Assembly (NCBI GenBank): GCA_012813795.1
Contig: GCA_012813795.1_4087.1
Length of the DNA stretch: 64,000 nucleotides
Direction: 5' to 3' (one strand)
Source of the DNA: a phage
Shown here: positions 26,578 to 62,872 of the stretch, piece after piece
Position numbering within the stretch: the first letter of the stretch is position 1
Layout of the letters: every line of letters starts with the position of its first letter
Translations under genes and position numbers: made by a program
The notes under the pieces: generated by a model
Databases searched by the model: none
Told to the model about the DNA's origin: nothing
Seen by the model: only the letters and a program-made list of their open reading frames with translations

Positions 26578-27156
26578 TTATAGATCACGGACAATATTCA
26601 TCAAACAAGTCTTAGGTTTGATACATTTGAAGAAGTACACCATCGTCTTATATTGTTTAATTATATCATCCAAATTTGGCGTTAGCAAGCTTTCTTGAAA
26701 ATATTCTTCTTCGCTCAAGTTTGGGAGGTCTTTCACGTCACAATTCAACTCAATAATATTAGAACTTGTGGTATACTCATCGATAGTTTTAAGTTGAACA
26801 ATCTCCCACTCAAATATACCAGCACTCAATGTACCGATAATACGAATACGTTCCGGCTTATCAGATGCATCTCTGCAATAGATACGTATAAACCCAGTAC
26901 CGTATCGTCTGTAATCATCTATCGTAATGTCCAGACCATCGTATACGAAGGATACTGAAATAATATTTTCAGTTGGATGTGCATCTTTCCCTGTACTATT
27001 GTTAGTACTTATATATCTAATATCAATCTTGTTAGATACTATCTTTCTACTCAGGGCAGAAAGTTTATTGTGTGCTTTGATAAAACCTAAGCATATATCA
27101 TTGAACCTTCCACTTTTATTCTTCTTTGATACTTTAAACTTACCTTTACGGTTCAT
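26578..27156 (-). CDS. EExYFQ-motif family protein
   Basis: 192 aa with EEEYFQES; -10 of module A6 only 8 nt from ATG (possibly leaderless). Confidence 0.55.
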   Translation of the reverse strand: MNRKGKFKVSKKNKSGRFNDICLGFIKAHNKLSALSRKIVSNKIDIRYISTNNSTGKDAHPTENIISVSFVYDGLDITIDDYRRYGTGFIRIYCRDASDKPERIRIIGTLSAGIFEWEIVQLKTIDEYTTSSNIIELNCDVKDLPNLSEEEYFQESLLTPNLDDIIKQYKTMVYFFKCIKPKTCLMNIVRDL

Positions 27157-27164
27157 AAGTCACC

Positions 27165-27195
27165 ATTATACAAAAGGGCTGACTTATGTCAACCC
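27165..27195 (-). promoter_or_regulatory. family-A module (hairpin + TTGACA-N17-TATAAT)
   Basis: revcomp GGGTTGAC-ataa-GTCAGCCC-ttttg-TATAAT. Confidence 0.6.
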
Positions 27196-27201
27196 CGTAG
27201 T

Positions 27202-27426
27202 TTAATATCTTTTTACTTCACATGGTACATATGGTTTGTACAAAATGATTATATCATTCACAAGGAAAATCACTGTTCCTCTATCATTGTGTATTGCCAT
27301 CTTAACCGACTTACCCTGATATGTCTCTGTGTAGCCACCGCTAACGTTTGTACACTTCACAAAGTACTTGATTCTGGCTTGTACTATTGTGCTCACAAAC
27401 ATTAATGCCACCAGCATGTATTTCAT
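27202..27426 (-). CDS. small secreted protein (signal peptide)
   Basis: MKYMLVALMFVSTIVQA signal-like N-terminus. Confidence 0.5.
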   Translation of the reverse strand: MKYMLVALMFVSTIVQARIKYFVKCTNVSGGYTETYQGKSVKMAIHNDRGTVIFLVNDIIILYKPYVPCEVKRY

Positions 27427-27447
27427 TTACTCGTGTCCATCAGACTA

Positions 27448-27711
27448 TTAGAATTGAATAGCAATACCTTTAGATGTAATTTCAAACGTACAGTTGTAGC
27501 GAGCCGCCATATCAATATACATATGTTCAGAATACCACGGAACGTTGATATCCGGTTGATTATCATATACCAGGCAGTCATTGTCACCAATGTGCTCGAC
27601 TTTAAATGGGACACCCATTTCAGTTAAAAACAACTCAGCACCTGGTGTGCGACGAAGGAACTCCACATCATCACGCAGACGAAAACCATGATAGTTCAAT
27701 TTCAGTTTCAT
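27448..27711 (-). CDS. hypothetical protein
   Basis: 87 aa. Confidence 0.5.
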   Translation of the reverse strand: MKLKLNYHGFRLRDDVEFLRRTPGAELFLTEMGVPFKVEHIGDNDCLVYDNQPDINVPWYSEHMYIDMAARYNCTFEITSKGIAIQF

Positions 27712-28068
27712 TTAATCCCCTATTGAATAGTTGTTCATTTGTGCAATTATGTTCATTATAACACAAATAACGTACAAGTCGAACTTTATTTTGTTGTGAT
27801 TAATTACACTATTATCGGGTACATACCCAACACACTCCACTGTGTATTCAAGGAATGATAGTTCAGAATCATCTGAATCTATATCTGCCTTAATGAAGTA
27901 CTTTAAATGTGGATGTGTATTAGTGTATGAACTTAAAATCTGTTGGAACTTGTTTCGTAGTTCACGAGTTAACTTTATGTAATCTTCATCGTCACGTTGG
28001 TCGAAATACGGATCTTGTGGTATCTCATAACTCAAGAACTTTGCAAATCGTGTTGATGTTTTATTCAT
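27712..28068 (-). CDS. hypothetical protein
   Basis: start moved to Met12 just after upstream stop. Confidence 0.5.
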   Translation of the reverse strand: MNKTSTRFAKFLSYEIPQDPYFDQRDDEDYIKLTRELRNKFQQILSSYTNTHPHLKYFIKADIDSDDSELSFLEYTVECVGYVPDNSVINHNKIKFDLYVICVIMNIIAQMNNYSIGD

Positions 28069-28501
28069 ATGCCATCTCTTCCTTATTAAATCTTGTAGCA
28101 CGAAATTCTTCTTTAGCTTCCTTTACTGACATAATACGAAGTAGTTTTGCACTACCATAATAGTACTGCACTTGGTTATGTCCAATGTCTACATGGTTAT
28201 CTGGAACTTCATACACAAAAACAGAAAATCCTGAACGATGAAGTTTACCTAAGTCCATTGTAAAGAATCTGAACAGGTCGTTTAAACTTTGGCATCCAAA
28301 TGCCCAGCCACGCTTTATAGAATAAATTCCATCGTCGGTGGGTTCTGGTTGAAATTGTGTAGGTGTGGTCATACACAAACGTTCAAATCCATTTTTAGTA
28401 CTGTATCGCGAAGAGTACCGTGCGAACGGTCCTACTGTTTTTGCAGGATCTAAGTTAGGTTCAATATAACTGAATTTAAGTTCAAAACGATATACATACA
28501 T
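28061..28501 (-). CDS. hypothetical protein
   Basis: 146 aa; downstream of module A7. Confidence 0.6.
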   Translation of the reverse strand: MYVYRFELKFSYIEPNLDPAKTVGPFARYSSRYSTKNGFERLCMTTPTQFQPEPTDDGIYSIKRGWAFGCQSLNDLFRFFTMDLGKLHRSGFSVFVYEVPDNHVDIGHNQVQYYYGSAKLLRIMSVKEAKEEFRATRFNKEEMAYE

Positions 28502-61226: not shown

Positions 61227-61470
61227 TATCCGATTTCTCATCTTGCTCATATGGACTTTTGCGGTTCATCACCCAAACAACAAATAGTAACCAAATCACA
61301 AAACCTAATATACGCAATGCAAAGTCAATATCAGTGTTAGTTCCACCATTATATTGGTAAATGATGGATGGAATCAAAGCAACTACAATTGTGATTAAGG
61401 TCATAAGAGCGAATACAACACCTTCAACGATGATTTTCACTTGTTCCCATATAGTTTTAAGATGTTCCAT
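61216..61470 (-). CDS. small membrane protein
   Basis: 84 aa, two hydrophobic segments. Confidence 0.55.
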   Translation of the reverse strand: MEHLKTIWEQVKIIVEGVVFALMTLITIVVALIPSIIYQYNGGTNTDIDFALRILGFVIWLLFVVWVMNRKSPYEQDEKSDNEY

Positions 61471-62036
61471 TACATGTCCTCTGAACCGATTCTAACCAAT
61501 TTCTGTTCATTATAGAAATCGCAGAAATCACCTTTCATGTATTTGATTTTAAGATTGCGTGTGCCTACCAGACGACGCAAACGACGCTTAACTGCACTCA
61601 GATCAGTTGAGAAGTTAAGATACATACCACCGACTTTACCTGGTACATCTGGTACGTACAGGTAATATGCATATTCCATTACCAGTCGTTGCTGGAACTG
61701 TTTCAGTGCAGCTTTGTATTCATCGAGGTTTTCAAAAAACACAGCATAGCATTCGGATTTACCCCACGGTGTACGTTTAAACATGCGGAAGTATTCATAA
61801 TTATCCCAATTCTCTTCTGTTGGATTGGGATTCACACATTCCAATGATGCGTCGGATTGACCACCTGATTTCCAAACTTCTTTCAAACCATTTTCAAAAA
61901 CAAAAAGAGTTGCCTCTTTACCACGGAAATGTTTTCTGTGCTTAGATAGTACTTGAATATGATTGCGTTTATGGTGATACATTTCATGTCCAATGTATTC
62001 ATCACTGTATTCACAAATCTTTTCACATCCAGCCAT
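61470..62036 (-). CDS. hypothetical protein
   Basis: 188 aa. Confidence 0.6.
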   Translation of the reverse strand: MAGCEKICEYSDEYIGHEMYHHKRNHIQVLSKHRKHFRGKEATLFVFENGLKEVWKSGGQSDASLECVNPNPTEENWDNYEYFRMFKRTPWGKSECYAVFFENLDEYKAALKQFQQRLVMEYAYYLYVPDVPGKVGGMYLNFSTDLSAVKRRLRRLVGTRNLKIKYMKGDFCDFYNEQKLVRIGSEDM

Positions 62037-62099
62037 TTTTATTTTACCTTTTTGTTTAATTAAAAGACGAGAGTATTATCACACACTCTCGATATATTG

Positions 62100-62270
62100 T
62101 CAATCTTCTTTTTTGACTTCTTCATGTAACCCGTATCGTGGGTCATATCGGTCATAAGTAGTACCGTTAGTACTGGCCTTAATGCTTTCAGTACGATTGA
62201 TTGGTTCAATCGATACACCACGATAACCAATCTCTTCTTTGAACTGTTTCCAGGATTCACTCAGACTCAT
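62100..62270 (-). CDS. small hypothetical protein (56 aa; alternative to track ORF 62060..62260)
   Basis: ATG after GGGGA RBS; hydrophilic; track ORF has GTG start, no RBS and odd composition. Confidence 0.4.
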   Translation of the reverse strand: MSLSESWKQFKEEIGYRGVSIEPINRTESIKASTNGTTYDRYDPRYGLHEEVKKED

Positions 62271-62282
62271 TTTGTCCCCTTA

Positions 62283-62426
62283 TTATTTCATACACTCGCG
62301 TAGATCAATCTTTTCAACTGAACCACCAAGTACTAGATAGTAAAAATTAGAATCTTTATTAGCCATATTCAGAAGATCTGCTTTCTGTTGAAGTGTAAAG
62401 CGTGATGTACTGTTACGCACTGGCAT
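62283..62426 (-). CDS. small hypothetical protein (47 aa, below track cutoff)
   Basis: ATG 5 nt after AAGGAG, 2 nt after upstream stop. Confidence 0.45.
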   Translation of the reverse strand: MPVRNSTSRFTLQQKADLLNMANKDSNFYYLVLGGSVEKIDLRECMK

Positions 62427-62428
62427 AG

Positions 62429-62872
62429 TTACTCCTTAAAGTAGATATCACGAATTTGTTTAATCATCTCTAACTCTTGAAGTCCTATCATACCAAAGTC
62501 TTCTTGTATTGTCAACTGCTGAAAGTACATTTCTTCTAAATTATTGTACGGAATCCCAACAAGATTCAAAGGCTCACTTTCCACACGATATATTGTATCT
62601 TCTACGTCATGCTTTTCAATGTGAATACTAAATGTATCTTTTTGAATTCTAAATTTATAAAATGTTTGATTTGATGTAAACAATCCAACTTTAGGATGGA
62701 ATCCCATTTGAATACACAAACAATCTTCATCGTTATATTTCAGGTATATAGTTTTTGACGTTGCCAGTACTTTAGACTTTGGGTAGTAAAAGTCCCCCAT
62801 CTCCTTCTGGCGTAGCCAATCATTATAAACTACCGGATGTTTAACTTTCTTTAATTGGTGCAGTACTGTCAT
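62429..62872 (-). CDS. EExYFQ-motif family protein
   Basis: start moved to Met5 (ATGA overlap); LEEMYFQQLTIQEDFG. Confidence 0.6.
   Translation of the reverse strand: MTVLHQLKKVKHPVVYNDWLRQKEMGDFYYPKSKVLATSKTIYLKYNDEDCLCIQMGFHPKVGLFTSNQTFYKFRIQKDTFSIHIEKHDVEDTIYRVESEPLNLVGIPYNNLEEMYFQQLTIQEDFGMIGLQELEMIKQIRDIYFKE

Follow-up and report, generated by a model that had tools for sequence, protein, structure and literature searches.

In the genome papers on phages RaK2 and CBB, the passages searched report that approximately 10% of RaK2 gene products (PMC3622015) and 22 CBB ORFs (open reading frames; PMC5259590) are paralogues, and that short hypothetical ORFs behind RpoD-like promoters form the presumed early host-takeover region (PMC3622015, PMC5259590). 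In the related phage phAPEC6, about 83% of the gene products have no known function (PMC7247149). We analysed a 64,000-nt stretch of phage DNA (contig GCA_012813795.1_4087.1 of assembly GCA_012813795.1; referred to throughout as the window), of about 35% G+C, in which the genes at 14-64 kb lie on the minus strand. At least twelve of these genes encode small proteins that share an EExYFQ motif close to the C-terminus and that constitute a single family, with a further array lying just past the right end of the window. A sequence-only reading of the window had listed 11 such proteins and had remarked on the likeness of their motif to the substrates of tobacco etch virus (TEV) and 3C-type proteases. 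All 11 were retained, one of them (55571-56074) as a divergent member, and a twelfth gene that had been overlooked was added.

The motif was far more frequent than expected by chance and was conserved in position. Among the 264 window ORFs of at least 50 aa, which served as the set for both motif and profile tests, the strict pattern [ED][ED].[YFL]FQ was observed 8 times, against 0.09 +/- 0.29 expected from 500 composition-preserving shuffles, and all eight occurrences lay 34-44 residues before the C-terminus in minus-strand genes. Every ORF named in the sequence-only reading was found to exist on the minus strand, with the motif where that reading had placed it, and profile hidden Markov models (HMMs) agreed with its proposal of one paralogous family. 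When each of nine core members was left out of the profile in turn, it ranked first of the 264 ORFs with E-values from 1e-12 to 8e-3, and an HMM built from 24 external metagenomic relatives, which contained no window sequences, recovered 11 window ORFs (E 1e-19 to 4e-5). These 11 window ORFs (E <= 4e-5) display the combined family signature, namely the motif 30-45 residues from the C-terminus together with an HMM match outside the motif. In pairwise BLAST among the members only six pairs reached E < 0.01, mostly through the last 30 or so residues, and thus the family is largely invisible to this type of comparison; the N-terminal two thirds display almost no sequence similarity between paralogues. 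Within the motif itself synonymous codons differ among members (TAT/TAC, TTT/TTC, CAA/CAG and GAA/GAG), indicating that conservation acts at the level of the protein. The family is one lineage-specific, heavily expanded set of single-domain proteins that are small (120-190 aa), in most cases acidic and presumably cytoplasmic: the isoelectric point (pI) is 4.2-5.0 in eight of the 12 members, and no signal peptide or membrane segment was apparent on inspection by eye.

Seven of the members form a tandem run at 46.8-51.1 kb, all on the minus strand. The run had been reported earlier with the correct seven genes, but it is interrupted by three non-members (47254-47769, 49851-50129 and 50129-50344). 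Its first gene, 50689-51114, encodes 141 aa with the motif NTEEKFFQYCLVNNTLGLTFEDI and gave the strongest match to the external-only HMM (E 1e-19). This is followed by 50334-50696 (120 aa; E 8.5e-16), the member chosen for structural modelling, whose motif T86-EESLFQYSMIN-D98 is encoded at 50403-50441. The next gene, 49126-49521, carries the variant motif LQEEMYEQLCFVYD (E 5e-13); although its ORF reaches 49590, the likely true start is at 49521 (MNLVVEDD), as supported by the annotation of phage A4, in which A4_157 is 396 nt in length, and by orthologues of 131 aa such as P0115. The run continues with 48656-49129 (157 aa; KSEEEYFQESLIND; E 4e-5), 48240-48659 (139 aa; TTEEEYFQDSTVKD; E 7e-9) and 47791-48258 (155 aa; LTEEQYFQIQTLHDIHDLTYEEI; E 3e-18), and ends with 46790-47254 (154 aa; LSDESYFQMQVAYDLQDLT; E 2e-16).

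The remaining members are dispersed over the same strand. The gene at 26578-27156 encodes 192 aa with a pI of 8.9 and a basic N-terminal extension, carries the motif LSEEEYFQESLL, and was recovered at E 1e-6 by both the leave-one-out and the external-only HMM. The overlooked member, 32173-32679 (168 aa; STEEGVFQSSLL), matched the external-only HMM over residues 22-138 (E 5.9e-6) and the A3 HMM at E 9.7e-6. For 62429-62872 (NNLEEMYFQQLTIQED; external-only E 2e-13) the likely true start is the ATG at 62872, giving 147 aa, the length of its orthologues P0009 and P0012. A gene that had earlier been listed only as a possibility, 63236-63712 (158 aa), was found to be a member, with HMM E-values of 4e-4 and, for the external-only profile, 5e-6 and an alignment over most of its length. 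The divergent gene 55571-56074 (167 aa, pI 8.7) has the motif TDEDAHFQESLVCD followed by a long C-terminal helix. By sequence its assignment is weak (external-only HMM E 0.011; hhalign E 0.002), and a homologue search yielded only two close orthologues, too few for a strong test by profile; its AlphaFold model, however, has the family architecture, and the matches of this model in BFVD overlap those of the core model. Two further minus-strand genes, 53695-54078 (127 aa; ADEEDEFQKRTV) and 57779-58171 (130 aa; SDEDEFQKITS), are possible distant relatives on the motif alone. They have in common the variant DE[DE]DEFQK and align with each other by hhalign at E 1e-4, whereas against the family they gave E 0.03 and E 0.02, respectively, and the former was not detected by the HMMs.

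By its sequence matches the window is from an Asteriusvirus, an E. coli jumbo phage of the 121Q/PBECO4/RaK2-like group. With the 46-52 kb region as query, megablast aligned 99% of the sequence to Escherichia phage A4 (an Asteriusvirus of 355.5 kb) at 97.9% identity, while in about 60 other 121Q/PBECO4-like jumbo phages the match was restricted to the right-hand third (49.8-52 kb) at 85-88%. In both A4 and phAPEC6 every gene under this finding is annotated as 'hypothetical protein'. Many orthologues carry the label 'Escherichia coli' in the protein records and are encoded on contigs of some 350 kb, which are whole Asteriusvirus genomes within bacterial isolate assemblies; the presence of lytic-phage genomes in bacterial assemblies has been reported by two papers.

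A 44-kb block of phage A4 contains 20 members, and the 50 kb next to it, which carry replication and structural genes, contain none. The phAPEC6 locus holds 18 members, and two 20-kb metagenomic loci of more distant relatives hold 9 and 16 (E <= 0.001); distant metagenomic members keep the peptide pattern at only about 15-30% identity. When 1.84 billion representatives were searched exhaustively with HMMER, 44 hits were obtained, of which the short ones (120-210 aa) all displayed the same signature. Several long repetitive proteins of 2,000-5,000 aa (P0118, P0120 and others) matched profile positions of about 20-97 only, upstream of the motif, repeatedly over 5-29 stretches, and were set aside, their sequences uninspected, as probable compositional artefacts. 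A word-indexed homologue search with a 43-sequence profile returned 19 close Asteriusvirus proteins and added nothing further. The family spans the RaK2/121Q-like jumbo phage clade, with nothing detected beyond it in these searches or in that of BFVD described below, and is present at approximately 20 copies per genome in tandem arrays.

A consensus was derived from 91 non-redundant members of six loci (the window, A4, phAPEC6 and three contigs from metagenomes or assemblies, with two of the contigs that carry the loci measuring about 350-362 kb), and reads T-E-E-x-[YFL]-F-Q-x-S-[LT]-[IVL]-x-D ... [LIF]-T-x-E-[DE]-[IL]-x-x-[IL]. Counted over the 90 members aligned, the first block comprises T/S93, E94 (82/90), E95 (78/90), Tyr, Phe or Leu at position 97 (31, 30 and 17 members), F98 (88/90), Q99 (80/90, with Met in the other 10), S101 (70/90), [L/T]102, [I/V/L]103 and D105 (59/90). 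The second block consists of [L/I/F]109, T/S110, [E/D]112, [D/E]113, [I/L]114 and [I/L]117.

The copies turn over rapidly. The left part of the tandem run, with five members (46.0-49.8 kb of the window), has a nucleotide match in A4 only, and A4 in turn encodes two family members, A4_148 (L001 27290-27643) and A4_139 (L001 30118-30609), that have no counterpart in the window. As the compared 46-52 kb stretch is about 98% identical, this shows that copies of the family have been gained or lost very recently. The median best-hit identity to phAPEC6 was 34% for family genes, in comparison to 59% for 75 neighbours (Mann-Whitney p 0.046). Within the orthologues of a single member the variation is unevenly placed: an entropy profile of 90 orthologues of 50689-51114 found the C-terminal module to be the least variable part, and the most variable to be an acidic loop just before the last strand, with indels and low-complexity insertions.

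An AlphaFold2 model of the 120-aa member 50334-50696, generated from a 43-sequence alignment, had a predicted local distance difference test score (pLDDT) of 87.5 and a predicted template-modelling score (pTM) of 0.79. The modelled elements are a helix at residues 4-15, five beta-strands within residues 26-79, a helix at 87-96 (EESLFQYSMI) and a last helix at 104-114. In this model the motif provides the N-cap (T86) and the first three turns of the penultimate helix, in a block with a pLDDT of about 90. This bears out the fallback offered in the sequence-only reading, that of a structural or interaction element common to the proteins. The conserved block that follows, L-T-x-E-E-I-x-x-I-L, is predicted to form the N-cap and the hydrophobic stripe of the last helix. 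The model of the divergent member 55571-56074 (pLDDT 80) has its elements in the same order, with more strands and a long final helix. The predicted domain thus consists of an N-terminal helix, an antiparallel beta-meander of 5-7 strands and two C-terminal helices, which probably cover one face of the sheet. From helical periodicity, F98, L102 and I/V103 would fall on one side of the helix, presumably facing the sheet, and since Met can replace Q99, this residue is suggested to be semi-buried.

The setting of these genes is that of a region read early in infection. Within 14-64 kb, sigma-70 consensus matches of at least 10/12 numbered 68 on the coding strand against 7 on the other; at 11/12 or better the counts were 32 against 0, and perfect TTGACA-N16/17-TATAAT sites numbered 12 against 0. 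Most of the sites fall in short gaps between genes, at a distance of 20-60 nt upstream of a start codon. A 12/12 site at 27192-27165 is found just upstream of member 26578-27156, and a perfect TTGACA-16-TATAAT site (51497-51524, minus strand) precedes both the tRNA-Thr gene (51131-51204) and the seven-gene run. The 14-64 kb block is therefore read, from these sequence matches, as probably an early region with many separate promoters served by host RNA polymerase, and the authors of the CBB paper drew the same conclusion for the equivalent region (PMC5259590). Five tRNA genes on the minus strand (51131-55260; Thr-TGT, Asn-GTT, Met-CAT, Ser-ACT and Ser-TGA) are interleaved with the family genes, and the neighbouring genes encode a phage sigma factor (37360-38322), a DksA/TraR zinc finger, a denV-like glycosylase and an HNH endonuclease, with a DNA methyltransferase and a peptidyl-tRNA hydrolase just past the window. 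The virion proteome of phAPEC6, as determined by mass spectrometry, lists 62 proteins, and none of the 18 phAPEC6 family genes (which include gp054c, 083c, 084c, 087c, 088c, 093c, 103c, 120c, 121c, 127c-132c and 134c, plus two unannotated ORFs) is among them (PMC7247149).

Some strong promoter-like sites are embedded in the family genes themselves, within the codons for the last helix. In three paralogues the residues DLT are encoded as GAC TTG ACA, which provides a -35 element with a -10-like hexamer 17 nt further on: TTGACA-17-TATTCT at 46867-46839 inside member 46790-47254, TTGACA-17-TATACT at 50365-50393 in the last-helix codons of 50334-50696, and TTGACA-17-TATGAT at 62515-62487 inside member 62429-62872. 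The second of these, an 11/12 match 21 nt upstream of the next ORF start, is kept in the A4 and phAPEC6 orthologues, the latter being 74% identical. Strong sigma-70-like sites occur within the last 150 nt of 18/75 family genes (24%), compared with 24/192 others (12%), at p 0.025 with orthologues that are not independent. On these sequence grounds the embedded sites may reflect a constraint that is both coding and regulatory, or may represent a portable promoter cassette, and in some members promoters of the next gene may thus constrain the last helix a second time.

Taken together, we favour, by a small balance of probability for the explanation as a whole, a family of early, host-directed binders in which the motif is the folding keystone at the start of a helix. 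The motif and the helix that follows would be the constant folding core, into which F98, L102 and I/V103 would pack, and this C-terminal module would be conserved as the sheet and its loops diversify, the acidic indel-rich loop upstream of the motif being the clearest case. The genes would be transcribed early by the sigma-70 RNA polymerase of the host, and the proteins would be non-virion, acting as stoichiometric binders or inhibitors of host factors in takeover or counter-defence. Different paralogues would cover different targets, and an arms race would lie behind their amplification and rapid turnover; a separate target for each paralogue would thus account for the tandem amplification, for the speed of divergence, and for copies being gained or lost between phages that are nearly identical. 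Several points weigh against this explanation. The role in binding or counter-defence is drawn from context, and the promoters are predicted, being consensus matches rather than mapped transcription starts. The model of 55571-56074 was built on the family alignment, with a possible bias toward the family fold, and the burial or exposure of E94, E95 and Q99 was judged from helical periodicity alone. The difference in divergence from the neighbouring genes is marginally significant (p 0.046, n = 11). Furthermore, E94 and E95 are near-invariant with no conserved basic partner in the family, which exceeds the needs of helix capping, and they may mark a functional site, for example for a shared partner or a metal.

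The unexplained near-invariance of the two glutamates keeps alive an adaptor family, in which the conserved C-terminal helix pair, with its EE/Q/S/D residues, docks one shared partner (a host hub protein or a phage factor) while the variable sheet picks the targets, the 20 or so paralogues being interchangeable specificity adaptors. Consistent with this, E94, E95, Q99, S101 and D105 are conserved far above any other polar position, even close orthologues vary least in the C-terminal module, and paralogues have almost no sequence similarity over their N-terminal two thirds. However, the model is a compact single domain without a free C-terminal tail, the conserved positions have a hydrophobic periodicity in keeping with core packing, the replacement of Gln by Met suggests burial, and there is no candidate for the partner; we therefore regard the adaptor family as an unlikely, albeit substantial, alternative. 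A bolder and rather more doubtful extension would see a phage 'repertoire' built on a previously unseen alpha+beta fold, whose invariant EE...Q.S...D patch docks a common partner and whose hypervariable sheet and acidic loop recognise many host proteins, at least 20 interchangeable paralogues per genome countering host defences as adaptors or decoys. In such a repertoire the embedded sigma-70 promoters of some copies would be portable expression cassettes that aid amplification and shuffling of the array. A DNA-level origin, with peptide conservation as the by-product of a nucleotide signal in gene 3' ends (for instance a promoter, or a recombination cassette, that serves the next gene), would be in keeping with the enrichment of 3'-end sites and the identical GAC TTG ACA in three paralogues described above. 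This is nevertheless highly improbable, as synonymous codons vary freely in the EExYFQ core, most members lack the promoter-like sites, which where present stand at varying offsets from the motif (+7 to +26 codons), and the distant metagenomic members retain the peptide pattern despite their low identity.

The idea that a TEV/3C-like, Gln-specific protease of phage or host cuts the motif, releasing or inactivating the C-terminal 30-40 residues, takes its appeal from a match at the level of the string. The family resembles the site E-x-x-Y-x-Q-(G/S) in its Glu at P6 (82/90), its Gln at P1 (80/90) and an aromatic P3 that is Tyr in a third of members; the pattern E..Y.Q occurs 8 times against 2.2 expected, and the family profile matches engineered TEV sites in PDB tags (4gfb). 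Yet Tyr at P3 is found in only 31/90, with Phe in 30 and Leu in 17, and Gln gives way to Met in 10/90. P1' falls below the 1.2-bit conservation cut-off, the window members having E, I, D, Y, Q, M, L or S there, while a conserved Ser occupies P2' and the conserved pattern runs on past the site (x-S-[LT]-[IVL]-x-D). Moreover, the site is predicted in both models, and confidently in that of 50334-50696, to lie in a helix rather than an extended segment, and a cut would deprive the predicted domain of two helices. No enzyme is evident either, as the sequence-only reading had already remarked: none of the 100 non-family window ORFs has a peptidase Pfam domain at E <= 1e-4, and 96 kb of phage A4 yielded a single protease-related annotation, for a weak ClpS-like adaptor, A4_74 (L007 26888-27433, outside the window, near IF3 and GroES homologues), labelled 'protease adapter protein' and matching ClpS at E 5e-4 with 20.3 bits, below the Pfam cut-off of 23. 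In the virion proteome of phAPEC6 a single protease is named, the prohead core scaffold/protease gp227c, and T4-type prohead proteases cut after Glu, not Gln. The resemblance to TEV/3C substrates, with the motif conserved in position and helical in context and with no peptidase found, is thus superficial, and cleavage at the motif is extremely improbable. It is just as hard to credit that the proteins are small DNA-binding regulators in which the two C-terminal helices (..LTxEEIxxIL.VS..) form a helix-turn-helix of the sigma-region-4 or LuxR type. A subset of members, e.g. DLTLEEINAILDVSR, resembles the start of sigma region 4.2, and the sigma factor mentioned above is encoded nearby; but 43 members gave no helix-turn-helix or Sigma70_r4 Pfam match at E <= 1, most are acidic, and the inter-helix loop is about 7 residues with the chain ending 5-15 residues past the last helix, leaving no recognition helix. 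Virion decoration or 'hair' components, or packaged internal proteins, might be envisaged, as Asteriusviruses have unusual hairy fibres and many uncharacterised virion proteins, and as two non-family genes beside the tandem run, phAPEC6 gp077 and gp078c, do encode virion proteins. In contrast, all 18 phAPEC6 family genes are missing from the virion proteome and the genes stand behind sigma-70 rather than late-type promoters, so that a structural role is most improbable.

Several other features were observed in the window. On the plus strand, 246-13555 encodes approximately 13 paralogous proteins of 290-450 aa with Gly/Ser/Thr/Asn-rich repeats, RCC1-like by eye, and a conserved N-terminus MLPFVRM(L/F)(E/D)YGN; the phAPEC6 proteome table includes several virion-associated 'DNA condensation protein' entries (gp003-gp010), whose orthology to this array is unconfirmed. 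The other features are on the minus strand. A run at 14698-17192 and 23339-23692 encodes six or seven small proteins of 106-145 aa, predicted to be multi-pass membrane proteins and alike in size and hydrophobic pattern, downstream of a gene for a DUF1190 protein (14147-14698). A 639-aa protein (18236-20155) has about eight tandem repeats of about 70 aa with the pattern (F)IKKAKEVHGDLYDYSKVEYIN...C(I/L)IHPE(Y/F)GE(F/Y) and a distinct C-terminal domain. Beside the tRNA cluster, 53124-53681 is a NUMOD4/HNH_3 homing-endonuclease gene that has no phAPEC6 counterpart and is an apparent insertion of about 0.9 kb relative to A4. A second, smaller paralogue set at 54574-56350 comprises five BLAST-linked ORFs of 54-76 aa (54574, 54735, 54896, 55398 and 56120).

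Recognition of the family merges about 22 'unknown' PHROGs, and about 20 genes per genome, into one, and covers approximately 3% of the annotated features of A4. RaK2/121Q-like jumbo phages are therapy candidates, and the family offers experimenters a tractable set of targets from which one misleading lead, that of a TEV-like cleavage site, has been removed. Should AFDB hold no relatives of the fold, a new structural family would be gained as well.

With respect to known families, no homology to a characterised family was detected in Pfam, NCBIfam or PADLOC: the latter two gave no family at all, and Pfam gave only scattered single matches at chance level. In PHROGs the same proteins are split over some 22 groups, all of 'unknown function' (phrog_17453, 24941, 24321, 35192, 24510 and about 17 others), although the phrog_17453 profile alone matches 29/43 family members; PHROGs gives them no name, motif, structure or function, and the unity and signature of the family are unrecorded there. 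Foldseek searches of BFVD returned only uncharacterised proteins of Asteriusviruses, RaK2, GAP32, CBB, fHe-Yen9-03/04 and pEa_SNUABM_47, the matches common to both models including A0A411BFC6, A0A2Z5HI81, A0A1L2CVH7, H6X3Z3 and H6X421. Besides the engineered tag already mentioned, the only natural sequence match in PDB was thiamin pyrophosphokinase 3ihk (profile E 3e-4), in which YELTEENYFQK is preceded by beta-strands, as is the family motif; with no Pfam or fold support, this was rejected as a coincidence of strings. The SUKH immunity fold (SMI1/KNR4-type) was also considered, and was dropped as no profile or fold match was found.

The paralogues of RaK2 and CBB were found by BLAST and, in the passages of those papers that were searched, are not described as a family; the motif, the fold and the clade-wide spread are absent from these passages. 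Likewise, literature searches on the motif string, Asteriusvirus paralogues and gene families led, in the parts of the sources covered, to the general remarks on RaK2 and CBB paralogues and to no description of the family. The nearest parallels in kind, by analogy, are the SUKH-superfamily immunity proteins and the poxvirus ankyrin/PRANC families, likewise sets of tandem, very divergent paralogues with fast turnover in a context of conflict, with small alpha+beta proteins among them. The family is thus undescribed, though of a familiar kind, namely that of expanded small early phage proteins.

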